From NCBI GenBank assembly GCA_029572955.1, contig JAKPQE010000034.1, positions 116,968-180,967 on the forward strand: a stretch of DNA of 64,000 nucleotides. The letters are read 5' to 3'. The notes beneath the pieces were generated by a model. That model searched no databases, was not told the DNA's origin, and was given only the letters and a program-made list of their open reading frames with translations. This DNA comes from Pseudomonadota bacterium. GTDB lineage: Bacteria > Pseudomonadota > Alphaproteobacteria > Rhizobiales > JAKPQE01. A program made the translations under genes and the position numbers. Positions 31,461 to 64,000 of this stretch are shown here, in pieces. Each line of letters starts with the position of its first letter. Positions within the stretch are counted from its first letter, which is position 1.

Positions 31461-31514
31461 GCATGCGTTTTCCGCATGCCATTTGCGAGAATTCGCCTCG
31501 ACAAGGGCGAATTC
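31461..31514. promoter_or_regulatory. two inverted repeats upstream of emrA (candidate operators)
   Basis: gcatgcg-ttttc-cgcatgc (31461-31479) and gaattcgcc-N8-ggcgaattc (31489-31514). The second ends about 45 nt before the emrA ATG. Confidence 0.3.
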
Positions 31515-31558
31515 CGGCCGCAACTAGGGCCCTTCTCCAAACGAGCCGCGGGTTCGCC

Positions 31559-32665
31559 ATGTCAGAACAGGTTTCCGAGACCGCGGCGGGCGCGGCAGAG
31601 CCCGAGGCCGCGCCGAACGCGCCGGTCGACAAGGCCTCCAAGCGCAAGCTCCGCATTCTCGCGCTCGCCCTCGTCGTCGCCGGCATCGCCGCCGCCGCGT
31701 GGTGGCACTATCAGGCGCGCTATCCCTCGACCGAGGACGCCTACCTGCAGGCCAACATCGTGCGCATCGGCGCCCGGGTCGGCGGCACCATCCTCGACGT
31801 CGCTGCCACCGACCATCAGCGCGTCGCCCGCGGCGATCTGCTGTTCCGGATCGATCCGGCGCCTTACGAGGCCAATGTCCGCCAGGCCGAGGCCGCCCTC
31901 GAACAGGCGCTGCAGGCCGCCGGCGCCAGCGGCGCCGAGGTCGAGGCCGCCCGGGCCGGCGTCGAGAAAGCGCGGGCCGGCTTCGTCAACACCGAGCGCG
32001 CCTATGGCCGCACCGCCAAGCTGCGCAAGACCGGCGACGTCGCCGAAGCGGCCCTCGACAAGGCGCGGAGCGACCTCGACCAGGCCAAGGCCGCGGTCGC
32101 CGCCGCCGAAGCCGATCTGCAGCGTGCCGAAGCCGCGCTCGGTGCGGGCGGCGCCGCCAATGCCGGCGCCCGCGCCGCCGCCGCCGCGCTCGACCGCGCC
32201 CGCCTCGATCTCGACGACACCCGGGTCGTCGCCCCCGCCGACGGCTGGCTCGCCACCGTCGCCATCCGTCCCGGCCAGACGATCGGCGCCGGCGCCGCGC
32301 TCTTTGCCCTCGTCGAGGACGGCGAATGGTGGGTCGAGGCGAACTTCAAGGAAACCGACCTCGGCCGCATCCGTCCCGGCCAGCCCGCGACGATCGAGGT
32401 CGACGCCTATCCCGACCTCGAGCTCGCCGGCACGGTGGAAAGCATCGGCCCGGGCTCGGGCGCCGTCTTCTCGATGCTGCCGCCGGAAAACGCCACCGGC
32501 AACTGGGTCAAGGTCACCCAGCGCTTCACCGTGCGCGTGCGCATCGACAACCCGCCGACCGAGGCCCGGCACCAGCTCCGCGTCGGCGCTTCGAGCGTCG
32601 TGCGCGTCGACACCACGGTGGAAGGCAATGCCGAGGCCACCGGCAAGGCGGGCGGCGCGTCGTGA
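31559..32665 (+). CDS. emrA: HlyD/EmrA family membrane fusion protein
   Basis: Real 3' part of ORF 29297..32665. Start ATG 31559 (MSEQVSE...). TM anchor LRILALALVVAGIAAAAWW, coiled-coil region, TRVVAPADGW, and WVKVTQRFTVRV. Confidence 0.85.
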   Translation: MSEQVSETAAGAAEPEAAPNAPVDKASKRKLRILALALVVAGIAAAAWWHYQARYPSTEDAYLQANIVRIGARVGGTILDVAATDHQRVARGDLLFRIDPAPYEANVRQAEAALEQALQAAGASGAEVEAARAGVEKARAGFVNTERAYGRTAKLRKTGDVAEAALDKARSDLDQAKAAVAAAEADLQRAEAALGAGGAANAGARAAAAALDRARLDLDDTRVVAPADGWLATVAIRPGQTIGAGAALFALVEDGEWWVEANFKETDLGRIRPGQPATIEVDAYPDLELAGTVESIGPGSGAVFSMLPPENATGNWVKVTQRFTVRVRIDNPPTEARHQLRVGASSVVRVDTTVEGNAEATGKAGGAS

Positions 32666-34206
32666 GCGAAGCGGCGGCCCTTCCCGCCCCGGCCGTCAGG
32701 ACCCGCCACGCCCGCTGGCCGCTGGTCGTCGCCGTCGTGCTGGCGGCGATCCTCGAAGTGCTCGACACGACCATCGTCAATGTCGCGATCCCGCACATGC
32801 TCGGCTCGTTCGGCGCGACCATGGACCAGATCACCTGGGTGCTGACGAGCTACATCGTCTCGGCCGCCGTGGTGATGCCGCTGACCGGCTATCTCTCGAC
32901 CCGCTTCGGCCGGCGCAACCTGCTGGTCACCGCCATCATCGGCTTTGCCATCTCCTCGATGCTCTGCGGCATCGCCTGGAGCCTCGTCTCGATGGTGGTG
33001 TTCCGCCTCGCCCAGGGTTGCTTCGGCGCCGTGCTGGTGCCGCTCTCCCAGACCATCCTCTTTACCGCCTTCCCGCGCGAGAAGCGCGGCCAGGCCATGG
33101 CCCTGTTCGGTCTCGGCATCATCGTCGCCCCGGTGCTCGGCCCGACCATCGGCGCCATCCTCACCGAGGCCTTCACCTGGCGCGCGGTGTTCTACGTCAA
33201 CCTGCCGGTCGCCGCCCTGGCGCTCGCCCTCGCCATCGGCGAGATCCCCTCCGAGCCGCCGAAGCCGATCCGCACCGACTGGATCGGCCTCGGCCTCCTC
33301 GCCCTCTCCGTCGGCGCGCTGCAGTTCACCATCGATCAGGGCGAGAGCCGCGACTGGTTCGCCTCGCGGATCATCCAGACCTCTGCCTTCGTGTCGGGCT
33401 CGATGGGGCTCGCCTTCATCTGGTGGGCCTGGTCGAAGCGCGATGCCATCGTCGACCTGCACCTCTTCAAGGACCGCAACTTCCTTGCCGCCAATGTCGC
33501 GATGCTCGCCTTCGGCGTCTCCATGTTCGGCTCGATCGCCCTCATCCCGCTGCTGGTGCAGCGCCTGCTCGACTATCCGGTGCTGGATTCGGGGCTTCTG
33601 TTCATGCCGCGCGGCCTTGCCGCCGGCGTCTCGATGATCCTCGTCGGCTCGGTGCTGCTGAAGCGCGTCGACCCGCGCATCCTCGTCGCCATCGGCCTCA
33701 GCCTGACCGCCGCCGGCAACATCACCCTCGCCTCGATCGATCTCGACGTCGATTTCTGGCGCCTCGCCTGGCCCGGCATCATCGCCGGCTTCGGCATGGG
33801 TTTCTTCTTCGTGCCGCTGTCGACGGTCGCCTTCGACCGCATCCCGCCCCGACAGGCCGACGAGGCCGCCGGGCTCTACGGCGTCATGCGCTCGATCGGC
33901 TCGTCGATCGGCATCGCCTTCGTCGGCTGGCAGATGGTCAACCGCACCCAGATCCACTGGAATGCCCTCGTCGGCCACGTCACGCCGTGGAGCCACGAGG
34001 CGCGGGCCTATCTCGCCCCGCTCGGGCTCGATCCGTCGAGCCCCGAGGGCGCCCGGCTGATCGCCCGCGAGATCGCCCGCCAGGCGCAGATGTTCGCCTA
34101 TATCGAACTCTTCTGGGTGCTCGGCTGGACCGCGCTCGCGATGTTCCCGGTCATCCTGCTGATGCGCAAGCCGACCCACGGCCCCGGCATGCCCGGCGCG
34201 CACTGA
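32662..34206 (+). CDS. emrB: DHA2-family MFS efflux transporter (EmrB/QacA type)
   Basis: Real part of ORF 31699..34206. GTG 32662 overlaps the emrA stop. LDTTIVNVAIPHM...GYLSTRFGRRN, 14-TM type. Confidence 0.85.
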   Translation: MSEAAALPAPAVRTRHARWPLVVAVVLAAILEVLDTTIVNVAIPHMLGSFGATMDQITWVLTSYIVSAAVVMPLTGYLSTRFGRRNLLVTAIIGFAISSMLCGIAWSLVSMVVFRLAQGCFGAVLVPLSQTILFTAFPREKRGQAMALFGLGIIVAPVLGPTIGAILTEAFTWRAVFYVNLPVAALALALAIGEIPSEPPKPIRTDWIGLGLLALSVGALQFTIDQGESRDWFASRIIQTSAFVSGSMGLAFIWWAWSKRDAIVDLHLFKDRNFLAANVAMLAFGVSMFGSIALIPLLVQRLLDYPVLDSGLLFMPRGLAAGVSMILVGSVLLKRVDPRILVAIGLSLTAAGNITLASIDLDVDFWRLAWPGIIAGFGMGFFFVPLSTVAFDRIPPRQADEAAGLYGVMRSIGSSIGIAFVGWQMVNRTQIHWNALVGHVTPWSHEARAYLAPLGLDPSSPEGARLIAREIARQAQMFAYIELFWVLGWTALAMFPVILLMRKPTHGPGMPGAH

Positions 34207-34240
34207 CGCGGCCGGAGTCTCGTACCGGGGGCCCTCGGTA

Positions 34241-34885
34241 TCAGAGCGCGACGAACTCGTCGGTTTCCTCGTCGAGCACCATCAGGTGGCCGCCGGCGAT
34301 GTCGTAGAAGGCGCCGTGCAGGGTGAGGGATCCGCGCTCTTCGAGGGTGCGGATGCAGGGGAAGGTCCTCAGATTGCGCATCGAGGTGCGCACCGCCTCG
34401 CGCTCGAGCTGGGCGAGATGGACATGGCGCGGCGCATCCGGCTGCGCGGCGATGATCGAGGCCCGCGCCTCGCCGATGATCGACATCCAGCGCCGCACGA
34501 AATCGCCGCGCTCGTCGGGCTCGCCGGCCGGCGTCTCGTAGGCCGCCCGGATGCCGCCGCACTGGGCGTGGCCGAGCACCACGAGGTCGGTCACCCTGAG
34601 CGACAGGACGGCGAATTCGAGCGCCGCCGAGACGCCGTGGTAATTGCCGCCGGTCTCGTAGGGCGGCACCAGATTGGCGACGTTGCGCACGACGAAGAGA
34701 TCGCCGGGCCCGGCCGTGAACACCGCCTCCGGGTGGACCCGCGAATCGCAGCAGCTCACCACCATCACCTTCGGGCTCTGCCCGTAGACGGCGAGCGCCT
34801 GATAGTCGTCGCGGTTGGGCTCGAACTCGGTCGTCTGGAACCGCCGAAAGCCTTCCGTGAGAGTCGCCGGAAACTTGATCCCCAT
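34241..34885 (-). CDS. can: beta-class carbonic anhydrase
   Basis: 214 aa. SCCDSRV and GHAQCGG zinc-ligand motifs. Confidence 0.9.
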   Translation of the reverse strand: MGIKFPATLTEGFRRFQTTEFEPNRDDYQALAVYGQSPKVMVVSCCDSRVHPEAVFTAGPGDLFVVRNVANLVPPYETGGNYHGVSAALEFAVLSLRVTDLVVLGHAQCGGIRAAYETPAGEPDERGDFVRRWMSIIGEARASIIAAQPDAPRHVHLAQLEREAVRTSMRNLRTFPCIRTLEERGSLTLHGAFYDIAGGHLMVLDEETDEFVAL

Positions 34886-46929: not shown

Positions 46930-48612
46930 ATGCGCATTCTGTTTCTCGTTCACAGCTTCAATTCGCTTGCCCAGCGCCTCTATGTCGAACTCGCCGAAGC
47001 CGGTCACGAGCTCAGCGTCGAATACGACATCAACGACGAGACGACCCGCGAGGCGGTCGCCCTGTTCAGGCCGGACGTCGTGCTCGCGCCGTTCCTGAAG
47101 CGCGCCATCCCCGAGGATGTCTGGCGCGCCCTGCCCTGCCTCGTCGTCCATCCCGGCGTGCGCGGCGATCGCGGCCCGAACGCCCTCGACTGGGCGATCC
47201 TCCGGCGCGAGCAGAGCTGGGGCGTGACGATCATCGAGGCCGAGGCCGAGATGGACGCCGGCCCGGTCTGGGCCTGGCGTGAGTTCGAGATGCGCCATGC
47301 GCCGAAATCGAGCATCTACCGCAACGAGGTGACCGAGACGGCGGTCATCACCGTCTTCGAGGCGCTCGCGATGATCGAGGCGCGCGACTTCCGCCCGACC
47401 CGGCTCGACCTGACGAAGCGCGAGATCCAGGGCACCGAGAACCCGCCGGTGCGCCAGGCCGACCGCCGCATCAACTGGCATCGCGACACCTCGATGCGTG
47501 TCGCCCGCATGATCCATTCCGGCGACGGCACGCCCGGCCTCCTCGACGAGATCGACGGCGTTCCCTACTACCACTACGACGCCCGGCCGTGGACCGGCCG
47601 CGAGCATGTGCTCGGCGCGCGCGGCGCCATCGTCGCCAAGAGTGGCCCGGCGATCGCCCGCGGCACCCGCAACGGCCTCGTCTGGATCGGCCATCTCAGC
47701 GAAAAGCGCGAGCGCGCCCTGAAACTGCCGGCGACGACCGTGCTCGCCGGCCGCCTCGACGGCGTGCCCGAGATCGAGGGCGGCTATCGCGAGATCTGGT
47801 ACGAGGAGGAGGGCCAGGTCGGCTACCTGCATTTCGCCTTCTACAACGGCGCGATGAGCACCGACCAGTGCCGCCGCCTCGCCGCCGCCTACAAGGAGGC
47901 CCGGGCCCGGCCGACCCGCGTGCTCGTGCTGATGGGCGGCGCCGACTTCTGGTCGAACGGCATCCATCTCGGCACCATCGAGGCCGCCGAAAGCCCGGCC
48001 GACGAAAGCCTCGCCAACATCGAGGCGATGGACGACCTCGCCCTCGCGATCCTGACCACCGAGGACAAGATCGTCGTCTCGGCCCTGCGCGGCAATGCCG
48101 GCGCCGGCGGCGCGTTTCTCGCCCTTGCCGCGGACGAGGTCTGGGCGCGCTCAGGCATCGTCCTCAATCCCCATTACAAGGACATGGGCAACCTCTACGG
48201 TTCGGAATACTGGACCTACCTGTTGCCGAAGCGGGTCGGCGCCGAGACGGCCGCCGCGATCGCCGCGCGCCGACTGCCGATCGGCGTCGCCGAAGCGCTG
48301 CGCCTGAAGCTCGTCGACCGCGCCCTGCCGAACGAGCGCACCGCCGCCGAAGCGGAGATCCGCCAGCGCGCCCGGGAGCTGGCGACCCGCGAGGGCTTCT
48401 CCTCACGCCTCTGGGACAAGCGCATCGCCCGCGGCCGCGACGAGAAGGAAAAGCCCCTCGCCGCCTACCGCGCCGAAGAACTGGAGAAGATGCATCTCAA
48501 TTTCTACGGCTTCGATTCGAGCTACCACGTCGCCCGCTTCAACTTCATCCACAAGGTGCCGAAGTCGAGGACGCCACTGACGCTGGCAAGGCATCGGGCG
48601 AAGAAGGGGTGA
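46930..48612 (+). CDS. HypX/HoxX-like protein (N-terminal formyltransferase domain + C-terminal enoyl-CoA hydratase/crotonase domain)
   Basis: Real part of ORF 46723..48612. Start ATG 46930 (MRILFLVHSFNSLAQRL). Formyltransferase motifs LVVHPGVRGDRGPNALDWAI and EMDAGPVW. Crotonase motifs VLVLMGGADFWSNGIHL and GNAGAGGAFLALAAD. Confidence 0.75.
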   Translation: MRILFLVHSFNSLAQRLYVELAEAGHELSVEYDINDETTREAVALFRPDVVLAPFLKRAIPEDVWRALPCLVVHPGVRGDRGPNALDWAILRREQSWGVTIIEAEAEMDAGPVWAWREFEMRHAPKSSIYRNEVTETAVITVFEALAMIEARDFRPTRLDLTKREIQGTENPPVRQADRRINWHRDTSMRVARMIHSGDGTPGLLDEIDGVPYYHYDARPWTGREHVLGARGAIVAKSGPAIARGTRNGLVWIGHLSEKRERALKLPATTVLAGRLDGVPEIEGGYREIWYEEEGQVGYLHFAFYNGAMSTDQCRRLAAAYKEARARPTRVLVLMGGADFWSNGIHLGTIEAAESPADESLANIEAMDDLALAILTTEDKIVVSALRGNAGAGGAFLALAADEVWARSGIVLNPHYKDMGNLYGSEYWTYLLPKRVGAETAAAIAARRLPIGVAEALRLKLVDRALPNERTAAEAEIRQRARELATREGFSSRLWDKRIARGRDEKEKPLAAYRAEELEKMHLNFYGFDSSYHVARFNFIHKVPKSRTPLTLARHRAKKG

Positions 48613-48615
48613 CGC

Positions 48616-49377
48616 TCAGCGCCCCCAACGCATCCCGGCGATCCTGGGGTCCGCGGCAAAGGCGTCGCGGTCGAATTCGAGGGCGAGCTTCGGGAACTCC
48701 CGCAGGGCAAGCACGCCCGAAGCACTCGGCCTGATCCGCCAGGTCTGTCGGTCGACCGGAGCCGGGCGGGCGAAGGCCGAGCAGGCAAGGACCGCGACAT
48801 TGGCCCGATGCCGGGGATCGCGGACCGATTCATAACGCAGAACCTGCGCCCCGGCGTCGCCCGCGCCATCGGCAAGCCGTTGGCTGGCTTCGTAGTTCGT
48901 CGGATCGACGAAATCCGCCCGATCGCGATCGAGCGGCGGGCGCGTCAGATCCAGCGCAGCGTCCACGCGGATATCGACGGCAAACGCGGAATATTCGGCC
49001 GCGTTGCTCGGCCACGGCGTGTCCGGCGACTCGGCGTAGAACAGCAGGCGATAGAAGGCCATTTCGGCCGCGGTCGTCTCCACCTCTTCGCCGGCATAGA
49101 AGACGCCGGGCGTCGGGCCGGCGCGGCGGAACCTGGAACCCACGGGATAGATCGCGCCATACCGGAACGGCGTTGCGAGAAGATAGTCGAGACCGGCACA
49201 GTCCGGCGGCAGGCGCGGCTTGGTCGTCTCCAGCAGGTCTTCCAGGAGTTCCTGCTCGGCCCGGCTGTCGACCAGCTTCAGCGTCGACACCTGATGCTGC
49301 GCCTCGACCATGCGCCAGCCCGTGCCCGTATAGGGGCCGAGTTCAGATGCGAGCGCGGCGAGCGTCCAGATAGCCAA
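48616..49377 (-). CDS. RES domain toxin (NAD+-targeting RES family)
   Basis: In frame of ORF 48616..49563. The start is uncertain (TTG 49377 overlapping the antitoxin end, or ATG 49311). GWRMVEAQHQVSTLKLVDSRAEQELLEDLLE...ATPFRYG...GSRFR...YESVRD. Confidence 0.78.
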   Translation of the reverse strand: MAIWTLAALASELGPYTGTGWRMVEAQHQVSTLKLVDSRAEQELLEDLLETTKPRLPPDCAGLDYLLATPFRYGAIYPVGSRFRRAGPTPGVFYAGEEVETTAAEMAFYRLLFYAESPDTPWPSNAAEYSAFAVDIRVDAALDLTRPPLDRDRADFVDPTNYEASQRLADGAGDAGAQVLRYESVRDPRHRANVAVLACSAFARPAPVDRQTWRIRPSASGVLALREFPKLALEFDRDAFAADPRIAGMRWGR

Positions 49378-49726
49378 GGATTTCCACCAGCCCCGTGATC
49401 GTGTCGAGCCGGTCGATGGGCCGACCGTCGAGCACACTGTTGAACCCCCGCAGCCACGACCGGGCAACCGCCTCGTCGCCACCGACGATCGCATCGAGCG
49501 AGCGGAACAGTCTGACCAGCAGCAAGCCGAGCTCGAAAGCCTTGTCGCCCGGCTTGAGGCCATATTGGCCGTTCTGCATGCGCGAAATCGTCGGCTCCGA
49601 GAGCCCGAGAATACCCGCGAGCTGCCGGTTGGACAGCCCGAGGATATTGGAGGTCCTTGTCACCGCCTTGGTAACGACGGCGGATTCGACTGCCTTTTGA
49701 TCCGGATTCGACGCGGAGGATGGCAT
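49343..49726 (-). CDS. Xre-family antitoxin with DUF2384 (MbcA/ParS-type) toxin-binding domain
   Basis: 127 aa. HTH ILGLSNRQLAGILGLSEPTISRMQNG. C-terminal ARSWLRGFNSVLDGRPIDRL. Immediately upstream of, and overlapping, the RES gene. Confidence 0.8.
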   Translation of the reverse strand: MPSSASNPDQKAVESAVVTKAVTRTSNILGLSNRQLAGILGLSEPTISRMQNGQYGLKPGDKAFELGLLLVRLFRSLDAIVGGDEAVARSWLRGFNSVLDGRPIDRLDTITGLVEILGYLDARRARI

Positions 49727-49842
49727 CGCAGTTTCCTTTCACTAGAAAATGTAATGCAAAAAAATTTCCAATGAAAGAACATCTTTCGATTTCTTCGACT
49801 GACCGCATGTCGCTGCGGTGATCGCAGCGCCGGAATCGGGCC

Positions 49843-55851: not shown

Positions 55852-56430
55852 TCAGAAGTCGCCTTCGGCGCCGCGCTTCATCACGTCCTGGATGATCCGC
55901 TTGACCTCGATCGCCTCGGCCCGGACGTCCTCGGGCAGCGGCTTGCCGCCATGGATCATCATGTCCATGTCGAGGCTGTAGAGCCACAGCTTGCCGGTCT
56001 TGTCCTCGACGAGCGTCACCCGGCACGGCAGATAGGCCGAGAAGGCGTCGTCGAAGTCCATCATCTTGGCCGCGGTCAGCGGGTTGCAGTAGAGGTAGAT
56101 CTTGACCTGGCGCCACTTGCCGCCGGTCATCGCCTCGATCTGGCGGCCGAGCGGCAGCGCCCCGACATCCTTGATGTTGTTCTCGATGGCGATCGACTGG
56201 ATCGACTCGTCGACATCCTCGAAGCTCAGCCCCTCGGCGACCTCGGTCTTCCAGACGGTCGCCTGCGCCGGGCTGCCGGTCTCCAGCAGCTTCACCGCCA
56301 TCGTCTTGTAGGTCGCGTACGCGCCGGGATCGAATTCGGTGAAGAACGGCCTGACCTTGGCGCCGACGACGGCGGCCCCGATCAGCGCGACGACGCCGAT
56401 CGCCGCCAGCAGATTGCGGATGAAACCCAT
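55852..56430 (-). CDS. DUF302 domain-containing protein with N-terminal membrane anchor/signal
   Basis: ORF 55852..57054 trimmed to ATG 56430 (MGFIRNLLAAIGVVALIGAAVVGA). DUF302-like core VKIYLYCNPLTAAKMMDFD...LPCRVTLVEDKTGKLWLYSL. Confidence 0.75.
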   Translation of the reverse strand: MGFIRNLLAAIGVVALIGAAVVGAKVRPFFTEFDPGAYATYKTMAVKLLETGSPAQATVWKTEVAEGLSFEDVDESIQSIAIENNIKDVGALPLGRQIEAMTGGKWRQVKIYLYCNPLTAAKMMDFDDAFSAYLPCRVTLVEDKTGKLWLYSLDMDMMIHGGKPLPEDVRAEAIEVKRIIQDVMKRGAEGDF

Positions 56431-56599: not shown

Positions 56600-57739
56600 T
56601 CACTGCGCCGGCTTGGCCTCGCCGGCCATGCCACCCATGCCGGACATGCCGCCCATGCCCTGCTGCGGCATCGGCGGATAGCCCGGAGGTGCCGGATAGC
56701 CCGGCGCCGGCGGGTAAGCCCCGCCCTGCGGGCCGCCCGGATACTGCGGCACGTAGCCGCCCGGCTGGCCGTAACCGGCCGGCGGCTGGCCGTAGCCCGG
56801 CGCACCGCCCTGCGGACCGCCATACTGCGGACCCGGATAACCGGCCGGCGGCTGGCCATAGCCCGGCGCGCCACCCTGCGGACCGCCATACTGCGGACCC
56901 GGATAGCCGGCCGGCGGCTGGCCGTAGCCCGGCGCACCACCCTGCGGACCCGGGCCGCCCTGCGGACCCGGACCGGCCTGCGGCGCCGGGCCTTCCGGCT
57001 GGGCCGGCGCCTCGAGCTTGCGATAGCCTTCCGGCACGCTGAACAGCGCCGCATCCGGCTTGATCAGCTGCACGCCGCGCAGTTCGCGCGCCATGCCGCC
57101 CGGGAAGTGCTCATAGACGTTGAGCTTGTATTCCGGGTCGAACAGAACGACGCCGTTCTCGAAGCGGCCGTTCGGCTGACGGAAGCCGATTTCCCAACGC
57201 TCGACCAGGCGCCCGCCGAACTTCTCGGTGCCCTGCAGGGTGCCCTGCATCACGCGACCGTCCGGGAATTCCTGCCGGATCACCATCTTGCGCTCGGTAT
57301 CCCAGAGCACCTTGAGGGCGCCGGGCATGCCCTTCGGCGTCACTTCCCACTTCTCGACCTTGACGCCGGCGATCTGATCTTCACCGACCCGCTCGCACTT
57401 CAGCTCCTCGGAGGCGACGCACGGCGCGTCGCTCGGGGCCGAAATCTGGCCGACGCCTTCGGGCGCGGGAAATTCCACATAGGTCCGATCGTCGGGGAAG
57501 AGCACCCGCGCGGTGCCGTCCTTGGCGGAGCGGATCTCGATGATCCGTCGGCCGTCCTTCAGCGACTCGAAGCGCACACCTTCCGCCGTCACGAAGATCG
57601 TGCCGCTCTGTGTGCCCATGCCCGGCACGGTCATCACGGCATTGGCCGTGAATTCCACCGGCTCGGCAGCCGCCGGCGACAGGCTCACCAGGCTCACCAG
57701 AGCCGTGCCCGCCGCGATGGCCGTCCAGTTCCTTGACAT
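56600..57739 (-). CDS. secreted protein A: LolA/DUF4412-like N-terminal domain + Gly/Pro/Gln/Tyr tandem-repeat, Met-rich C-terminal tail
   Basis: 379 aa. Signal [27 protein letters not shown], then ~230 aa globular ([45 protein letters not shown]). Three repeats of ~22 aa follow ([22 protein letters not shown]), ending [24 protein letters not shown]. Confidence 0.7.
56775..56960. repeat. 66-bp in-frame tandem repeat (about 2.8 copies) inside gene A
   Basis: Units start at 56775, 56841 and 56907 (ccggccggcggctggccgtagcccggcgcaccgccctgcggaccgccatactgcggacccggataa) with few substitutions. Confidence 0.8.
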
Positions 57740-57858
57740 ATGACCGCCTCCCTGAATGTTGCGTTGGCGCCGGACCGGACCTGAAACCCAAGGCCACGGA
57801 CCGGGTCGGGGCGCGCGCGCCCTTCGTTCCCTGTCCCGCAGGCAATTCCATGTGAAGG

Positions 57859-57895
57859 GTGGAGACAGGGTGACGCCGGGTCACCCCGTCTCCAC
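57859..57895 (-). terminator. strong hairpin 33 nt downstream of gene B
   Basis: gtggagacagggtgac-gccgg-gtcaccccgtctccac, a 16-bp stem with one mismatch. Confidence 0.5.
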
Positions 57896-57927
57896 GCGTC
57901 TGCTAGCTGGGGATCCCAGCTCTCAGA

Positions 57928-58299
57928 TTACTGAGCCGGAGCAGCCGGAGCGGCCGGAGCGGCCGGAGCGGCCGGCGGGGCCGGCGGGGCATAGCCATAC
58001 GGGGCATAGCCGTACGGAGCGCCGTAGCCATACGGAGCGCCGTAGCCCGGATAACCGCCCCAGCCATAGCCCGGATAGCCGTAGCCGTAGCCGTTGCCAT
58101 AGCCACGACCGCCGCCACGGCCGCCGAAGCTCATGTTGAAATCGCCGTCACCCCAGCCGTTGCCGTCCCAGGGGCCACCGCCGCCCCACGGGCCGCCGCC
58201 CCAGGGGCCCCAGCCCCAGGCATTCGCACTGGTGGTGGCGGCAGCGGCCGCGAGGCCGACAACGCCGGCGAACAGCGTCGCCTTCAGGATCTTCATCAT
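57928..58299 (-). CDS. secreted protein B: small Trp/Gly/Tyr/Pro low-complexity protein (sulfur-globule-protein-like composition)
   Basis: ORF 57928..58848 trimmed to ATGATG 58299, with AAGGAG 7 nt upstream. Signal [27 protein letters not shown]. Then [23 protein letters not shown]...[58 protein letters not shown]. Confidence 0.65.
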
Positions 58300-58405
58300 G
58301 TCGTCACTCCTTGCTTTGCGTCCCTCTTTCAAACTCAACTTCCGGAAGGAGGGAGCTCTCCCGAAAAGCCGCCTCGGCCCGAAGGCTTCGGATTCTGTGC
58401 GGTGC

Positions 58406-58876
58406 CTACCAGGCACCGAGGACCCACGGCGCCGCAAAACCGGGCGTCGCGAGCATGTGTGGATCGGCATAGGGCCCGTAACCCGGACCCATGAGACCGT
58501 AGCCGGGCGCCCCGAGGCCGTAGCCGCCGAGCACGCCGCCAAAACCGCCAAAACCGCCGTAGCCGCCGAGCGGCGCCATCGGGTAGCCGTAGGGCGCACC
58601 GTAGCCCCAGGCGCCATACCCGGCCGGCGGCGCATAGGCCGGCGCGGCGGGTGCGGCAGGTGCCGGGCTCGTCGCCGGCGGCGCCTGATAGCCGTAGCCG
58701 CCGCTCGGCCGGCCGCTGCCGGAGAACACGTTGCCCGTGGTCTGCGGATCCTGCGGCACGTAGGACTGCCCGGCCGGCGCCCACGGATTGCGCCCTTGCG
58801 CGAGCGTCGGCTGCACCGCGGCGAGGAACGCCATGGCGAAGACCGCAAGCACCGTCAGAGCTGTGACCTCGTTCAT
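58406..58876 (-). CDS. secreted protein C: Gly/Tyr/Pro/Ala low-complexity protein
   Basis: 156 aa. Signal [27 protein letters not shown]. Shares GAPYGY and PAAPAAPA motifs with protein B. ATG lies 11 nt after the protein D stop, with GAGGA in between. Confidence 0.65.
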
Positions 58877-58887
58877 CGTCGTCCTCG

Positions 58888-60336
58888 TCAGCGCGCTTGC
58901 CCGGGCGCCTGCGGCGGCCAGGCGGAAATGGAAGCCGTCATCGGCGCGCCGGTATGGCTCCGCGGCGCCGGCCGGCTACCGAAATCGACGCGCACCGTGT
59001 TGCCGGCGGACGGCAGCGCACCGTTGTGCGGCGGATAGACCGCGATGCCGACGCCGGTCACCGTGTTCGAGCCGCGCTGCTCCGGCAGGGCGCCGCCCCG
59101 GCCGCCGCCCGCCTCGGGCGTGAAGCCGCCCGGCGGAAACCCCTGGCCGGAAACCGGGCCGGTCGAATAGGGCAGATTCTTGTCCCGCCCGGCGGTACCG
59201 ACCGGCTGCCCGGGTGCGAACGGCATGCCCGGCGCGGCCGGCGCGTATGTCGGCGCGCCACCGTTCCAGGGACTCGCGGCGCCGGCCGGCACGGTCGGGC
59301 TCGGCCGTTCCGGTGCCGGCGGCGGAGCGTAGGCCGGCGCGGCGTAAGGATAGCCCGGCATGCCATAGGCCGGCGGGTAGGGCGCGGCGAAGCCGTAGCC
59401 GGGCATCGGGCCGTAGCCCGCGGGCGGCACCGGGCCACCGGGATAACCAGCGGCGGGCGCCGGCCAGGCCGGAGGCGCCGGCGGGCGCCCGCCATATCCG
59501 CCGTAGCCGTCGACCCGCGGCGGCGCACCATAGGGCCGATAGCCCGGATACGCCGTTCCCCCCTGCGAGTCGGCCGTTCCCCCCTCCGGCGGGAAGTCCG
59601 AATAGCGCGGCATGCCCGGATAGCCCGGCGCACCCGGCGCCGCCGGTCCGGCCGCCCCGGCGGGCGGCACCGCATTTCCCGCGCCGTCGCTGCCGCCCCA
59701 TCCGGGGCCGGACCAGTCGTGACGGCCGCTGGCATAGTGATCGTTGACCGAGATCGGCTCGGCGCCGGTGTGCGGCAGCGGCCAGGGCGCCCCGCCCTGC
59801 CCCCAGGCCGGCACCGGAACACCGTCGCCCGACATACCGGACATGCCCGACATGCCGGACATGCTGTCCATCGGCATCGGCATCGGCATCGGCGCACCGG
59901 CCGGTCCGCCGAGCGGCATATAGCCCGGCGCCTGCAGCGGCGTGCTGCCGCCGACGGCCGAGAAGCTGCCGACCGCATCCTTCTCCGAAGCAGCGGAGGC
60001 GTCCTTCCTGTCCTGCTCGGGATCGTAGCCGACCGGCGGATAGGCGCCGAACTGACCGGCCTGCGCCATCTGCGGTCCGACCGCCGCCGGCTCCCAGGCC
60101 GCCGCCGCGGGTCCCGCCCCCGGCAGCCGGTGCTCGACCGCGGTGAGTTCGCAGCAGCGCTGGCGGCCGAAATCGACGTTCCCCGTCTCCGGCAGCAGCA
60201 TCGCGGTGCGGGCCGCCACGTCCCGTCCGGCCGCCTCGGCCGGCGTGTCGATCACCCCGCGCGCTGCCGGCAGCGCCATGGCCAGGGCCCCGAGGCCGGC
60301 CATCGTCAGCAAATGAACCTTCTTCAGTGCCATCAC
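58888..60336 (-). CDS. secreted protein D: large Pro/Gly/Ala/Tyr/Met low-complexity protein
   Basis: 482 aa. Signal-like MMALKKVHLLTMAGLGALAMALPAARG. PMPMPMPMDSMSGMSGMSGMSG block plus GYGGYGG and [16 protein letters not shown] motifs. The start GTGATG overlaps the RND stop TGA, with AAGGGAGGG upstream. Confidence 0.65.
   Translation of the reverse strand: MMALKKVHLLTMAGLGALAMALPAARGVIDTPAEAAGRDVAARTAMLLPETGNVDFGRQRCCELTAVEHRLPGAGPAAAAWEPAAVGPQMAQAGQFGAYPPVGYDPEQDRKDASAASEKDAVGSFSAVGGSTPLQAPGYMPLGGPAGAPMPMPMPMDSMSGMSGMSGMSGDGVPVPAWGQGGAPWPLPHTGAEPISVNDHYASGRHDWSGPGWGGSDGAGNAVPPAGAAGPAAPGAPGYPGMPRYSDFPPEGGTADSQGGTAYPGYRPYGAPPRVDGYGGYGGRPPAPPAWPAPAAGYPGGPVPPAGYGPMPGYGFAAPYPPAYGMPGYPYAAPAYAPPPAPERPSPTVPAGAASPWNGGAPTYAPAAPGMPFAPGQPVGTAGRDKNLPYSTGPVSGQGFPPGGFTPEAGGGRGGALPEQRGSNTVTGVGIAVYPPHNGALPSAGNTVRVDFGSRPAPRSHTGAPMTASISAWPPQAPGQAR
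59831..59893. repeat. in-frame microsatellites inside gene D (9-bp x4 then 6-bp x4)
   Basis: gacataccg-gacatgccc-gacatgccg-gacatgctg, then (catcgg)x4. These encode (MSG)4 and (MP)3-4. Confidence 0.75.
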
Positions 60337-63300
60337 CCGTGCCCTCCCTTGGCTTTCCGGGTTGCGACGCGGCGCGCCTTGCGCATGTCCGCCCGCGACT
60401 GCCGCCGCCGCTCGCCGTGGCGAGCCTGGCCGGCGGCATTCTCATCGCCGTCATCCGGCGAGATCTCGGTATCGTCGTGTTCGTCGTCGTCCGCCGTGAC
60501 CGGCGCCGCGACCACCATCGGCTCGTCTTCGACGAGAACCGGCTTTGCCGTCTTCGGCGGCGCCTTGCGCGCCGGCTCGGCATCAACGCTGTGATCGGCC
60601 TTGCGCGCCACTGCGGCGGCGGCCGACCGCGGCTTTGCCTTCGCCGCGCGCGGCTTCGGCGCTTCGGCCGGCGTCTCGGCCACCGGCTCGTCGGCGACCT
60701 CGGCAGTCTCGGCGGCGGCGCTCTCGGCCCGCTCTTCCGCGGCCGCATCGAGGATCAATTCCGCTTCGGCAGCCGCTTCGGCATCCATGTCGGCCGTGTC
60801 GGTGTCGTCGTCCGTCATCGTGCCGGCGGCGTGCGGCGCCGCTTCGGCCGCGACGGCCACTTCGTCAGCACCGGTCTCGGAGAAGATCTCGTCCGCCTCG
60901 AGCGCGGCCTCGGCCTCGTCACCGGCGACTTCGTCCTCGGCTTCCATCGCCGCCACCGCTGCAGCGGCAGCCGCCGCGGCCGACGTCACCGCCTTCGACG
61001 TGGTCTCGGCAGGCGCCGGGGCCGGGGTCGGAGCTGGAGTAGCCGCCGGAGCGGGTGCCGGGGCCGCCGCCTCGGCGACGGGCTCGCTCTTGGCCGGCGC
61101 GGCCTTGGCCGGAGCCGCGGCAGCCGGGGTCGCGGCTGCGGTCGGCGCTGCCGGCGCGGGCTGCGGCTTCGGCGCACCACCGCCGCCACCGCCACCGCCG
61201 GTCGGACCGCTCGGCGGCTTCGGCCGCTTGAAGATGCCCTTCGCGGTTTCCTTGATGAACAGCCACAGGAACGTCGGCAGGGCGCGGATCGCATAGAAGA
61301 CGAAGGTGATCTTCTCCGGGTCGATGACCTTGGAGACCAGCGCCTTGATGCCCATCCAGGCCATGATGAACACCGCCCGGACCATGTAGAAGGCCATCAT
61401 CAGCGCCTGGCCGATGCGGCCGGGCTCCGAGGGCGCCTCGTCGACGGCGGCCACCGCGCCGTTCTCGCCGAGGCTCGAGCGCGCCTTGACGCAGGCCAGC
61501 GGGATCAGCATCAGCGTCAGCAGGGTCGAGACCATGCCGCCGAACATCAGCGAGATCGCCATGCCCTGGAAGATCGGGTCGGTGATGATGACGCTCGAGC
61601 CGGCGACGAGGGCGAGCGCCGTGATCAGGATCGGCCGGGTACGCGTGCGCGCCGCCTGCAGCACCGCCTCGCGCGGCGCCATTCCGGCCATCACCGCCTG
61701 CTGCGAGAAGTCGACGAGCAGGATCGAGTTGCGCACGATGATGCCGGCGAGCGCGATGAAGCCGATCATCGAGGTCGCGGTGAACTCGGCGCCGAGCAGC
61801 ATGTGGCCGGGCACGATGCCGATCAGCGTCAGCGGGATCGGCGCCATGATGATGCCGGGCAGGCGGAAGTTTCCGAACTCCCAGACGACCAGCATGTAGA
61901 TCATCACCATGGCCGCCGCGAAGGCGATGCCCATGTCGCGGAACGTCTCGTAGGTGACGGTCCACTCGCCGGTCCACTCGAAGGCCGAGGTGAAGCTGTC
62001 TTCCGGCGGGCCGATCCAGTTGGCGTCGAGCTTGACGCCGTCGGGCGCCGTGTAGTCCTCGAGCAGGTGCTCGACCTCGATCATGCCGTAGATCGGCGCG
62101 CCGAGACGGCCGGCGACGTCGCCGGTGACGTATTCGATCGGCCTGAGGTCCTTGTGATAGATCACGAGGTCTTCCGGCAGGCGGTCGAAGCGGCCGAGCT
62201 CGGCGATCGGCACCATGGTGCCGGCCTGCGAGCGGATCGGAATCTCGCCGAGGCGCGACATCTGGCTGCGCACCTCGAGCGGCGCCTGCAGCACGATGAA
62301 GCGCGGCTCGAGCTCGTGGCCGAGCTTGGCGTCGCCGAGGCGGAAGCCGCCGAGCGCCATCGCCAGCTGCTCGTTGACCGAGGCGATGGTGACGCCCTTC
62401 AGGGCCGCCTTCTGGCGATCGATCATGAACTGCCAGCGCTGGTAATGCGCGGTCAGGTAATTGTCGACGTCGACGACCGAGGGCGCCTTCTCGAAGATCG
62501 CGGTCAGATCCTCGGCGACGCGCCGCCGGGTCGTGGCATCGGGACCGTAGACTTCGGCGACCAGCGTCTGCAGCACCGGCGGTCCGGGCGGCATTTCGAT
62601 GACCGCGACCTTGGCGCCCATTTCCTTGGCGATCGGGCTCAGCGCGGCGCGCGCCGCCACGGCGATCTGGTGGCTCGAGCGGTCACGGTCGCTCTTGTTG
62701 ACGAGCTGGACCTGGACGTCGGCCTCCCAGGGGTGCTGGCGCAGGTAGTAGTGCCGCACCAAGCCGTTGAAGTTGAACGGCGAGGCGGTGCCGGCATAGC
62801 TCTGCACCGCCGTCACTTCCTCCATCTCGAGCAGCTTGTCGGCCACCCGCTGGGCGACGTTCGCGGTGGTCGCCAGCGCCGTGCCTTCCGGCATGTTGAT
62901 GACGACGTTGAACTCCGGCTTGTTGTCGAAGGGCAGCATCTTCACGGCGACATGCGTCGTGTAGAAGGCCATGCAGAACAGCAGGAACACGCCCCAGATC
63001 GCGAGCTTCAGGATGCGGTTCTTGGCCTTGCTCTCCATGAACGGCACGAGCAGGCGCTTGTAGAAGCGGCCGAGCGACTCGCTCTGGCGGTGCTCCTTGT
63101 CCTGCGCCTTGGAGAGCTGGGCCAGCGACGGCCGGATGCGGTAGGCGAGCCACGGCGTGAACACGAAGGCGGCGAACAGCGAGAACAGCATCGCCACCGA
63201 GCCGAGCGCCGGGATCGGCTCCATGTAGGGGCCCATCATGCCCGACACGAAGCCCATCGGCAGCAGTGCCGCGATGACGGTGAAGGTCGCCAGAATGGTC

Positions 63301-64000
63301 GGGTTGCCGACCTCGCGCACCGCGTCGACCGTCGTCTCGGTGTCGATGTCGCCCTTCAGCAGCCAGCGCCGGTAGATGTTCTCCACGACGACGATCGCGT
63401 CGTCGACGAGGATGCCGATCGAGAAGATCAGCGCGAACAGGGACACGCGGTCGATGGTGTAGTTGAGCACCCAGGCCGCGAAGACGGTGATCAGGATGAC
63501 CACCGGGATGACGATCAGCACCACGGTCGCCGCCCGGATGCCGAGCGCCATCAGGATCAGGATGGTGACCGCGCCGGTCGCCACGAACAGCTTGAAGATC
63601 AGCTCGTTGACCTTCTCGTTCGCGGTCTCGCCGTAGTTCCGGGTGATCGACACCTGGACGTCGCCCGGGATCACCCGACCCTTCAGGTAGTCGACCTTCT
63701 CGAGAATCGCGTCGGCGACGGTGACGCCGTTGGTGCCGGTCTTCTTGGCGATCGCGATGGTGACCGCGGCAGCGCCCCCGTCGGCCCGCACGCTCGCGTC
63801 CTCGGCCGCCGGGCCGGTGAAGTACTGGACGACGCTGTCCGCCTCGCCCGGCCCCTCGATGACATTGGCCACATCGCGCAGATAGACCGGGCTGCCATTG
63901 AAGGTGCCGACGACGAGGCGTTCCAGGTCCGCCGCATGCTCGAGGAATTCGCCGGAATAGACGGTGAAGCTCGTGCCATCCATTTCGGCCTGGCCGACCT
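60333..64000 (-). CDS. RND superfamily efflux permease (N-terminus beyond right window edge) with ~380-aa C-terminal extension
   Basis: The frame is open to position 64000. RND core motifs FSIGILVDDAIVVVENIYRR and GFIALAGIIVRNSILLVDF. After the last core TM (about 61480) come two extra hydrophobic helices, a Gly8 run, and a ~300-aa Ala/Pro/Glu/Asp-rich tail ending in a basic RRRQSRADMRKARRVATRKAKGGHG. Confidence 0.85.
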   Translation of the reverse strand, partial: VGQAEMDGTSFTVYSGEFLEHAADLERLVVGTFNGSPVYLRDVANVIEGPGEADSVVQYFTGPAAEDASVRADGGAAAVTIAIAKKTGTNGVTVADAILEKVDYLKGRVIPGDVQVSITRNYGETANEKVNELIFKLFVATGAVTILILMALGIRAATVVLIVIPVVILITVFAAWVLNYTIDRVSLFALIFSIGILVDDAIVVVENIYRRWLLKGDIDTETTVDAVREVGNPTILATFTVIAALLPMGFVSGMMGPYMEPIPALGSVAMLFSLFAAFVFTPWLAYRIRPSLAQLSKAQDKEHRQSESLGRFYKRLLVPFMESKAKNRILKLAIWGVFLLFCMAFYTTHVAVKMLPFDNKPEFNVVINMPEGTALATTANVAQRVADKLLEMEEVTAVQSYAGTASPFNFNGLVRHYYLRQHPWEADVQVQLVNKSDRDRSSHQIAVAARAALSPIAKEMGAKVAVIEMPPGPPVLQTLVAEVYGPDATTRRRVAEDLTAIFEKAPSVVDVDNYLTAHYQRWQFMIDRQKAALKGVTIASVNEQLAMALGGFRLGDAKLGHELEPRFIVLQAPLEVRSQMSRLGEIPIRSQAGTMVPIAELGRFDRLPEDLVIYHKDLRPIEYVTGDVAGRLGAPIYGMIEVEHLLEDYTAPDGVKLDANWIGPPEDSFTSAFEWTGEWTVTYETFRDMGIAFAAAMVMIYMLVVWEFGNFRLPGIIMAPIPLTLIGIVPGHMLLGAEFTATSMIGFIALAGIIVRNSILLVDFSQQAVMAGMAPREAVLQAARTRTRPILITALALVAGSSVIITDPIFQGMAISLMFGGMVSTLLTLMLIPLACVKARSSLGENGAVAAVDEAPSEPGRIGQALMMAFYMVRAVFIMAWMGIKALVSKVIDPEKITFVFYAIRALPTFLWLFIKETAKGIFKRPKPPSGPTGGGGGGGGAPKPQPAPAAPTAAATPAAAAPAKAAPAKSEPVAEAAAPAPAPAATPAPTPAPAPAETTSKAVTSAAAAAAAAVAAMEAEDEVAGDEAEAALEADEIFSETGADEVAVAAEAAPHAAGTMTDDDTDTADMDAEAAAEAELILDAAAEERAESAAAETAEVADEPVAETPAEAPKPRAAKAKPRSAAAAVARKADHSVDAEPARKAPPKTAKPVLVEDEPMVVAAPVTADDDEHDDTEISPDDGDENAAGQARHGERRRQSRADMRKARRVATRKAKGGHG

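Follow-up and report, generated by a model that had tools for sequence, protein, structure and literature searches.

To our knowledge, only four sulphur globule envelope proteins have been described, all of them from one purple sulphur bacterium. SgpA, SgpB and SgpC of Allochromatium vinosum (Pfam family PF17228, SGP) are proteins of 8-14 kDa with Sec signal peptides, keratin-like repeats rich in Gly, Tyr and Pro, and an expected periplasmic location, and the classical sgp genes have been described as separate transcription units. SgpD is also Sec-exported; it has about 160 residues, regularly spaced prolines and two long helices predicted with high confidence, it is dispensable and limited to the Chromatiaceae, and its gene has its own promoter and terminator. 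The gene for SgpD (Alvin_2515), an experimentally confirmed globule protein, adjoins that of an HAE exporter in A. vinosum (PMC10386293). Our literature searches connected RND pumps with sulphur globule genes through a single sentence of that paper and nowhere else.

We analysed a 64-kb stretch of DNA (the window) in which two genes for low-complexity proteins, D and C, lie directly 3' of a gene for an HAE-1-like RND permease. The features of the locus are collected in Table 1.

Table 1. Positions of the pump locus genes and their sequence features in the window.
Feature	Positions	Strand	Remarks
RND (HAE-1-like) permease	60333..64000	-	Pfam ACR_tran, E=2.7e-104; N-terminus beyond window end
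RND C-terminal tail	~60336-61250	-	~300 aa, A/P/E/D/K-rich
Shine-Dalgarno-like AAGGGAGGG	60350-60342	-	inside end of RND gene, 8 nt 5' of D ATG
Alternative D start	60336-60334	-	GTG, giving a GTGA overlap with RND stop
RND stop codon	60335-60333	-	TGA
Possible D start	60333-60331	-	ATG, one base shared with RND stop (TGATG)
Gene D	58888..60333	-	481 aa from ATG; P/G/A/Y-rich, predicted secreted and disordered
D signal-peptide-like N-terminus	60256..60333	-	residues 1-26, MALKKVHLLTMAGLGALAMALPAARG before V (...ALPAARG before V); judged by eye
D Cys60-Cys61 pair	60151..60156	-	read from sequence
D-family signature YPPVGYDPEQ	60013..60042	-	residues 98-107
D Met-rich tract PMPMPMPMDSMSGMSGMSGMSG	59827..59893	-	coded by tandem repeats of 6 and 9 nt, in frame
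D termination codon	58890-58888	-	TGA
D-C spacer CGAGGACGACG	58887-58877	-	11 nt, carries GAGGA ribosome-binding site
Gene C	58406..58876	-	156 aa; G/P/A/Y-rich, predicted secreted; start ATG at 58876
C-family NPW motif	58781..58789	-	residues 30-32, directly after signal peptide
C stop codon	58408-58406	-	TAG, after ...PWVLGAW
Gene B	57929..58299	-	123 aa, signal peptide, G/Y/W/P-rich; Pfam PF17228 SGP, E=1.3e-14
LolA-like periplasmic protein	56600..57739	-	379 aa; signal peptide, LolA-like beta domain, P/G/Q/Y tail; weak DUF4412 match
DUF302 protein	55852..56430	-	192 aa; Pfam DUF302, E=1.2e-12; last conserved cluster gene

The first-pass annotation, made from the sequence alone, had proposed that D and C are real genes while warning that low-complexity ORFs are suspect in a genome in which long ORFs occur in every frame. 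A 565-aa ORF on the plus strand and a 590-aa ORF on the minus strand overlap D. ORF length is thus no proof of coding, and the claim was therefore tested by codon statistics and comparison with relatives. The fraction of GC at codon positions 1, 2 and 3 is 0.74, 0.68 and 0.86 in D and 0.72, 0.64 and 0.83 in C, and the D and C frames have the highest GC3. Their codon adaptation indices are 0.596 and 0.558, as compared with at most 0.37 in all other open frames and 0.59-0.82 in reference genes of the window; the sole frame with comparable scores contains 23 and 13 internal stops. The codon-usage check that had been suggested favours exactly these two frames.

The closest genome, L004, gives the same answer. 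Its pump protein is ~92-93% identical to that of the window, and in protein-guided alignments D is 63% and C 56% identical. The D and C frames are open there, whereas stops interrupt the alternatives, among them the antisense ORF present in the window. Differences between the two genomes number 104, 112 and 211 at the three codon positions in D and 48, 48 and 81 in C, an approximately twofold enrichment at third positions, and 109 codons of D and 39 of C differ only synonymously. The third-position excess persists in an unguided DNA alignment, although its gaps are placed ambiguously and it is no clean test for indels: multiples of three account for 3 of the 9 gap runs in D and for 8 of the 12 in C. 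Tandem repeats occur in D, C, B and the gene for the 379-aa protein, and every one of their periods is a multiple of three.

It is scarcely credible that D and C are chance ORFs of a high-GC genome, with the information in another frame or in none. The two overlapping ORFs of more than 560 aa, the extreme composition of both proteins and the near absence of homologues from large protein databases speak for that explanation; however, high GC3, high codon adaptation and freedom from stops are combined only in the D and C frames, only these frames stay open in L004, the substitutions are concentrated at third positions with many synonymous codons, family motifs are kept in distant genomes, and the start geometry and ribosome-binding sites are conserved. 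Together these observations effectively refute the chance-ORF explanation, and we conclude from these comparisons that D and C are genuine protein-coding genes.

The arrangement of starts and stops had been the principal argument of the first-pass annotation. Both the overlap of the RND stop with the D start behind an upstream ribosome-binding site and the short spacer leading from the D TGA to the C ATG are present on the minus strand. The junction of pump stop and D start, AAGGGAGGGCACGGGTGATG, is identical in the window and L004, and the D-C spacer of L004 has 17 nt. In at least six more distant lineages (L043, L031, L032, L068, L019 and L046) the next start overlaps the pump stop as ATGA or GTGA, and L084 has GGGAGGAGGA followed by a GTG start ~10 nt short of the pump stop. 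A conserved stop/start overlap and a short spacer with a ribosome-binding site are the pattern expected of coupled operon genes. Translation of D would be coupled to that of the pump through the overlap, C would be coupled to D through the spacer with its own ribosome-binding site, and both would be carried on the same mRNA as the membrane-fusion protein (MFP) and the tail-bearing permease. On a longer contig a perfect sigma-54 promoter (TGGCACGCAGATTGCT) stands in front of the operon, as does a divergently transcribed gene for a PAS/sigma-54 activator. A scan of positions 57700-60500 found neither a sigma-70 promoter nor an intrinsic terminator, and the predicted folding of the C-B spacer is no more stable than that of shuffled controls (z=+1.2).

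The features that had been read from the two proteins are also there. The hydrophobic N-termini of D and C have the n/h/c layout of signal peptides, as judged by eye, with small residues at -3 and -1 and, in C, predicted cleavage before RNPW; both are conserved in the orthologs, that of D as ...ALPAART before L in L004. The Cys pair near the N-terminus of D is kept in L004 (GRGCCAL) and absent from more distant members of the family. Mature D (455 aa) is 18% P, 18% G, 16% A and 5% Y; mature C is 25% G, 17% P, 16% A and 10% Y and has three Met residues. Lys and Arg together number only two in C and 22 in D. GYG and PGY repeats are common to D, C and B. A single-sequence AF2 run, which is weak evidence of disorder, predicted D to be almost wholly unstructured (mean pLDDT 41.7), its only helices being two low-confidence ones of 6-7 residues. 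The tandem repeats over the Met-rich tract of D have TRF periods of 6, 9 and 18, and the tract corresponds to GMAGMSGMSGMSGMSG in L004. Such Met-rich tracts hint at metal binding instead of a structural role.

Neither D nor C matched any Pfam or NCBIfam model, nor did their counterparts at other loci. In a word-indexed search with full-length D, low-complexity candidates predominated and the only sequence returned was a fragment of D; the N-terminal 135 residues of D returned no matches. A metagenome scan with the D-family alignment gave 128 pattern matches, none of which was confirmed; with D alone the sole match was an identical fragment from activated sludge. A full-length recognisable ortholog of D was found in one close relative only, and a JGI contig carries D called as a 481-aa gene. 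A phmmer search with C against 1.84 billion cluster representatives found two fragments and the L004 ortholog (P0004). Because homology searches returned almost nothing, the D and C families are not traceable by sequence search; synteny with the pump succeeded where sequence search did not. The motif [YF]PPxG[YF]DP[EG] occupies a comparable position in L004, L084, L005 (Rhodobium orientis), L006 and L020, and variants of it in L024 and L037. In the ten-locus alignment of the C family (A2), NPW is invariant in all ten sequences and is accompanied by a [SQ]x[YF][AV]PxD motif and a C-terminal SPFGFW. By their sequences, D and C are each a member of a small, motif-defined family for which Pfam and NCBIfam have no model. 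For annotation, the lesson is that codon-position statistics and synteny can validate low-complexity ORFs in high-GC genomes when homology searches fail.

Gene B, the next gene downstream, is a true member of the SGP family (55.2 bits, with a cut-off of 26.7) and encodes a protein of 34% G, 16% P, 15% A and 13% Y. SGP-like ORFs occur in 25 related loci, always 3' of the pump and on the same strand, and 10 of 21 reach Pfam significance. D and C share with SgpA, SgpB and SgpC the repetitive Gly/Tyr/Pro-rich composition that marks sulphur globule envelope proteins and the expected periplasmic location, and their N-termini, as judged by eye, resemble the Sec signal peptides of those proteins. Gene B belongs to the operon neighbourhood of D and C; many SGP-like proteins of the Magnetococcales end, as C does, in an aromatic residue (...PWGW). 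However, D and C did not match the SGP model (gathering threshold 26.7 bits) even at E<=1, and profile comparison revealed no relationship: when the C-family alignment was compared with 21 SGP-like proteins by hhalign, just 14 columns, in the signal peptide, could be aligned. D is also several times larger than SgpA, SgpB and SgpC, D and C have signature motifs of their own (YPPxGYDPE in D, NPW...SPFGFW in C), and, unlike the classical sgp genes, they appear from their start geometry to be coupled to a pump.

D resembles SgpD in its predicted Sec export and regularly spaced prolines and in being apparently dispensable and lineage-restricted. The comparison with SgpD was made by N- and C-terminal peptides only, recovered from primer sequences, and neither the N-terminus (MSKLIQTVSAIALAAATTTAFA before W) nor the C-terminal peptide had a significant match in the fetched loci. 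Whereas SgpD has its long helices and its own promoter and terminator, D is predicted to have only short, low-confidence helices in 481 residues and its start overlaps the pump stop. We therefore do not assign D to the SgpD family.

The 379-aa protein encoded next has homologues 3' of the pump in 36 loci, and its gene contains a 66-nt in-frame repeat. Its AF2 model (pLDDT 63) had LolA3, LolA-superfamily proteins, RseB and EPDR1 as top Foldseek matches. Like the LolA and LolB carriers it would be a periplasmic protein with an all-beta half-barrel, although TM-scores are only ~0.4 and the DUF4412 match is weak. It differs from LolA proteins in its long PGQY/Met tail, and we know of no such tail among them. 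On the evidence of the model, this neighbour suggests that the pathway to which it, D and C belong handles hydrophobic cargo. The DUF302 gene is kept downstream in L004, L084 and several gammaproteobacterial loci. At the other end of the cluster, the upstream 122-aa protein matches no Pfam or NCBIfam model; an SCP2-like assignment found no support in its sequence.

The permease has 1466 aa at full length on contig L003. We surveyed the best 80 of its 589 relatives. A tail of 120-380 aa is present in all 80 except L053 and five whose contigs are cut off, and a low-complexity gene with a signal peptide lies right 3' of the pump at nearly every locus. Those of the 80 that are named to family or order include ~14 Chromatiaceae or Chromatiales, 9 Sedimenticola or Thiodiazotropha, 12 Magnetococcales and 3 Thiotrichaceae or Thiotrichales. 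Chromatiaceae and Chromatiales, Sedimenticola and Thiodiazotropha, Magnetococcales and Thiotrichaceae are typical formers of intracellular sulphur globules (PMC10386293). The first-pass annotation had missed both the SGP-family neighbour and the conservation of the cluster in sulphur-storing bacteria, which give D and C a probable biological role.

We consider it probable that D and C, as real genes coupled to the pump, encode exported, disordered structural proteins of the coat or matrix of a sulphur or other hydrophobic inclusion. A structural role is the most likely because of the SGP neighbour, the LolA-like carrier and the occurrence of the pump clade in sulphur storers with periplasmic globules. 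Since both proteins carry putative Sec-type signal peptides, export to the periplasm is expected; there they would be intrinsically disordered polymers rich in Pro, Gly, Ala and Tyr, and D, C and the SGP protein would wrap and stabilise an inclusion on which the pump acts, made of zero-valent sulphur or of some other hydrophobic material. The sequence comparisons establish that D and C are coding, how the operon is arranged, that it is conserved and that an SGP gene adjoins it, and from these we infer export, disorder in the cell and any contact with sulphur. The two proteins may be hitherto undescribed components of the sulphur globules of bacteria.

In a quite improbable alternative, the pump exports metal, and D, C and the tail of the LolA-like protein serve it in the periplasm by binding the soft metals Cu(I) or Ag(I), which their Met-rich tracts would capture and pass to the MFP and the RND permease. 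The tract of D, kept in L004, may resemble the CopB/PcoB-type Met-rich repeats of copper-resistance proteins, the tail of the 379-aa protein ends in Met-rich sequence, and (GMSGMDGM)n repeats form a long tail in its homologue P0006. A match to the CusB/HlyD barrel-sandwich domain was obtained with the MFP (its L084 homologue has a weak BSH_CzcB match), and a copper P-type ATPase is encoded in the window at 28856-31330. However, that ATPase is 27 kb distant, the Met-rich tracts are limited to this lineage, 33 further homologues of the 379-aa protein lack them in their tails, and C has few Met residues. The permease scores 308 bits with the multidrug/HAE-1 model and 194 bits with the CusA/CzcA model, so that by score it is not of the HME type, and its closest relatives of solved structure are MdtB, CmeB and MexK, ZneA ranking far lower. 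Pfam and NCBIfam searches found no metal-binding domain in D or C, and the cluster has no outer-membrane factor gene. CusF, the accessory partner of CusCBA, is periplasmic, as D and C are expected to be, and is like them encoded in a pump operon, and the D/C lineage has Met-rich segments; but Pfam and NCBIfam searches gave D and C no similarity to CusF or any other accessory family, and in contrast to small folded metallochaperones of the CusF type they are predicted to be disordered low-complexity polymers. Metal efflux would also leave the SGP gene and the sulphur-storing taxa unexplained.

The proteins could instead be secreted and disordered in a cluster that serves another cargo or envelope role, for instance the export of lipids or hopanoids, another kind of inclusion body or an adhesive matrix, with the SGP neighbour a generic Gly/Tyr/Trp-rich coat protein. 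The cluster is also carried by Hyphomicrobiales and by Rhodobium orientis, Sinisalibacter and other Rhodobacteraceae, for which we know of no intracellular sulphur globules, and the contigs carrying D come from a JGI sample and from activated sludge. Lipids and amphiphiles are the usual cargo of LolA-like proteins and HAE-type RND pumps. Genes of sulphur oxidation (sox, dsr, sqr, fcc) were not seen within the 64-kb window, and the sulphur-oxidising capacity of the organism is therefore unproven. We nevertheless find such a role unlikely: the best-sampled carriers of the cluster are exactly the bacteria that form periplasmic sulphur globules, gene B scores twofold above the curated SGP threshold, and the confirmed globule protein SgpD is likewise encoded beside an HAE exporter (PMC10386293).

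It is possible, though doubtful, that D and C are the lineage-specific scaffolds of an unrecognised and widely conserved module for sulphur globule assembly. Such a module may comprise a small cytoplasmic protein, an MFP, an HAE-type RND permease with a long disordered cytoplasmic tail and one or more coupled, secreted, disordered proteins, together with SGP coat proteins, a LolA-like carrier, a DUF302 protein and, in most lineages, a ParA/MinD-like ATPase. If so, the deposition of zero-valent sulphur into periplasmic globules would be active and pump-driven; its site might be set by the cytoplasmic tail with the ParA-like ATPase, and nucleation or wrapping of the hydrophobic sulphur phase would fall to the disordered proteins. 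The locus supplies candidate genes for this and a testable hypothesis, that globule formation depends on a pump. It joins an SGP gene, two unannotated families of predicted disordered proteins, an RND pump and a LolA-like carrier, and the same arrangement recurs in Alphaproteobacteria, Gammaproteobacteria and Magnetococcales.

D and C, two low-complexity ORFs following an RND permease (the pump), had been proposed in the first-pass annotation as real genes on the strength of their coupling to that pump, and the junctions described there are present in the sequence: AAGGGAGGG lies upstream of D, the D start shares one base with the pump stop, and D is separated from C only by CGAGGACGACG. An alternative start for D is a GTG at 60336. 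The signal-like N-termini of both proteins, the P/G/A/Y-rich composition, the cysteine pair near the N-terminus of D (Cys60-Cys61) and the ...PWVLGAW end of C were likewise confirmed. We gathered 80 related loci by synteny, anchored on the core of the pump. The pump/D junction, AAGGGAGGGCACGGGTGATG, does not differ between the window and the closest of these (L004, a Hyphomicrobiales MAG with a pump ~92-93% identical), and ATGA or GTGA overlaps of the pump stop with the next gene occur in six further loci (L043, L031, L032, L068, L019 and L046), so that the start/stop geometry is conserved in relatives, as the annotation had proposed checking. In another fetched locus, L084, a GTG start lies ~10 nt before the pump stop, with GGGAGGAGGA ahead of it. 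The layout of D and C suits translation coupled to that of the pump, their frames are conserved, and both lie inside a conserved cluster with a true SGP gene.

Coordinates of the features discussed (window positions unless L003 or L041 is named; L003 is a longer JGI metagenome contig covering the cluster, L041 a related locus)
Feature	Position	Strand	Basis or remark
Sigma-54 promoter, TGGCACGCAGATTGCT	L003 3593-3608		perfect consensus
122-aa gene before MFP	L003 3729-4097		conserved upstream of MFP in many loci
Pump C-terminal tail	60336-61250	minus	~300 aa
AAGGGAGGG ahead of D start	60350-60342	minus	sequence inspection
RND ORF stop TGA	60335-60333	minus	sequence inspection
D, 481 aa	start ATG 60333, stop TGA 58890-58888	minus	sequence inspection
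D-C spacer, 11 nt, CGAGGACGACG	between D stop and C start	minus	sequence inspection
C, 156 aa	start 58876, stop TAG 58408-58406	minus	C-terminal ...PWVLGAW
C-B spacer, 106 nt	58300-58405	minus	
Gene B, 123 aa, just after C	57929-58299	minus	Pfam SGP E=1.3e-14, nearly whole model covered
379-aa periplasmic protein	56600-57739	minus	signal peptide, predicted LolA-like all-beta domain
Xre-like antitoxin and RES-domain toxin	~48600-49800; L003 20608-21446		JGI gene calls
943-aa ORF	31476-34307	plus	wrong-frame artefact
Copper-type P1B ATPase	28856-31330	minus	two HMA domains
ParA/MinD/MipZ-like ATPase (example)	L041 16363-16995		

ORF length carries no weight as evidence for D or C, because a 565-aa ORF on the plus strand and a 590-aa ORF on the minus strand overlap D. 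GC content at codon positions 1/2/3 is 0.74/0.68/0.86 in D and 0.72/0.64/0.83 in C, and GC3 is at most 0.75 in every other open frame there. The codon-adaptation index, referenced to 14 ordinary genes of the window that themselves score 0.59-0.82, is 0.596 for D and 0.558 for C, with the remaining open frames at 0.25-0.37. Comparable values are reached only by the wobble-sharing antisense frame, which has 23 and 13 internal stops. Every tandem-repeat period in D, C, B and the 379-aa gene is a multiple of three, and the gene calls of an independent JGI metagenome contig include both D and C.

Against L004, D has 63% amino-acid identity over 470 aligned codons (109 synonymous-only codons; 104/112/211 differences at codon positions 1/2/3) and C has 56% over 148 (39 synonymous-only; 48/48/81), giving chi-square values of ~50 and ~12 on the position counts. 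Both frames are unbroken in L004, where the antisense frame fully open in the window is interrupted by stops. Codon statistics and frame conservation were the refutation tests named in the first-pass annotation; they were run, they favour the D and C frames, and the ORFs passed. D and C are almost certainly real genes, and chance ORFs are effectively excluded as an account of them. The 943-aa ORF, which is Arg/Pro/Ser-rich and has no Pfam match, contrasts with D and C and is a good negative control for spurious ORFs here.

On sequence comparison, D and C belong to small, fast-evolving families. Pfam and NCBIfam hold no model for D, C or the low-complexity proteins of other loci, and sequence searches found almost no homologues of D or C among billions of proteins. 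C-family members occur in the window/L003, L004, L005 (Rhodobium orientis), L010, L011, L017, L036 (Sinisalibacter aestuarii), L038 and L061, and probably in L020. They share an invariant NPW 2-3 residues past the predicted cleavage site, the motif [SQ]x[YF][AV]PxD and, in most members, a C-terminal SPFGFW. The D-family motif, [YF]PPxG[YF]DP[EG], lies ~75-100 residues from the N-terminus in the window, L004, L084, L005, L006 and L020, and L024 and L037 carry a variant of it. Full-length orthology of D is based on a single close genome, the other matches being at the level of the motif. A different low-complexity protein with PxPGPYQ…PYWMQ occupies the D/C position in Rhodobacteraceae loci, and another with [YF]RFRPL does so in many gammaproteobacterial loci. 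A metagenome contig from activated sludge (L085, ENA UOWE01110499) encodes the C-terminal 267 residues of D at 100% identity, which is the only hint at the habitat of the organism.

Gene B is absent from the first-pass annotation. Of the related loci, 25 carry SGP-like ORFs downstream of the pump and in the same orientation, and 10 of 21 reach Pfam significance on their own. In the C-B spacer we detected no terminator (fold z=+1.2), nor any match to a sigma-70 or sigma-54 consensus. The beta domain of the 379-aa protein (model pLDDT 63) matches LolA3, LolA-superfamily proteins, RseB and ependymin-related proteins, and its homologues follow the pump in 36 loci; the P/G/Q/Y-rich tail, built from a 66-nt repeat (~3 copies, 94% identical) with a Met-rich end, occurs only in this lineage. 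A DUF302 protein is the last gene of the cluster.

The pump is a divergent HAE-1-type RND protein, with MdtB, CmeB and MexK as nearest solved structures. Its A/P/E/D/K-rich, disordered tail follows two extra hydrophobic helices and is presumably cytoplasmic. Long disordered C-terminal tails are unusual among RND pumps; tails of 120-380 aa occur in nearly all 80 pump relatives. A ParA/MinD/MipZ-like P-loop ATPase is conserved downstream of the pump in ~50 loci from most lineages; the window, L004 and L084 lack it. Taken together, this ATPase and the pump tail hint at a positioning system. Upstream of the pump on L003 are the MFP gene and the 122-aa gene, whose product has no Pfam or PDB sequence match and is reminiscent of an SCP2-type lipid-binding domain. 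The sigma-54 promoter, just past the window end, precedes the 122-aa gene, the first of the operon, by ~95-135 nt, and a PAS/sigma-54 enhancer-binding activator gene is divergent from the operon.

D and C resemble the sulphur globule proteins of Allochromatium vinosum in composition, likely targeting and neighbourhood, but are not members of PF17228 (SGP), and D is unlike SgpD (Alvin_2515), which is helical, ~160 aa and separately transcribed. Judged by eye from their signal peptides, D and C would be exported by Sec; they are predicted to be disordered (AF2 mean pLDDT 41.7, single-sequence run) and, with the SGP protein, may form a coat or matrix around zero-valent sulphur, the hydrophobic cargo that the pump and the LolA-like carrier would handle. 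We found no description of a pump-SGP cluster in the literature. Of the 80 best pump relatives, the ones named to family or order level comprise approximately 14 loci from Chromatiaceae/Chromatiales, 9 from Sedimenticola/Thiodiazotropha, 12 from Magnetococcales, 3 from Thiotrichaceae/Thiotrichales, 9 from Rhodobacteraceae and 7 from other Alphaproteobacteria; the remainder are mostly unclassified gammaproteobacterial MAGs. According to PMC10386293, sulphur globules that are intracellular and periplasmic are typically formed by purple sulphur bacteria, magnetotactic sulphur oxidisers, sulphur-oxidising symbionts and Thiotrichaceae.

Taken as a whole, the statement that D and C are real genes with a sulphur-globule role seems to us moderately probable. 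Another hydrophobic cargo, or an envelope role, is unlikely by comparison, and would fit the lack of sulphur-oxidation genes within the 64-kb window and the presence of the cluster in some organisms not known as globule formers. The Met-rich tracts suggest metal handling, but they are limited to this lineage and the pump is not HME-like. The copper-type P1B ATPase of the window, 27 kb away, is probably unrelated to the cluster. A few genes separate the downstream end of the cluster from the pair of Xre-like antitoxin and RES-domain toxin.
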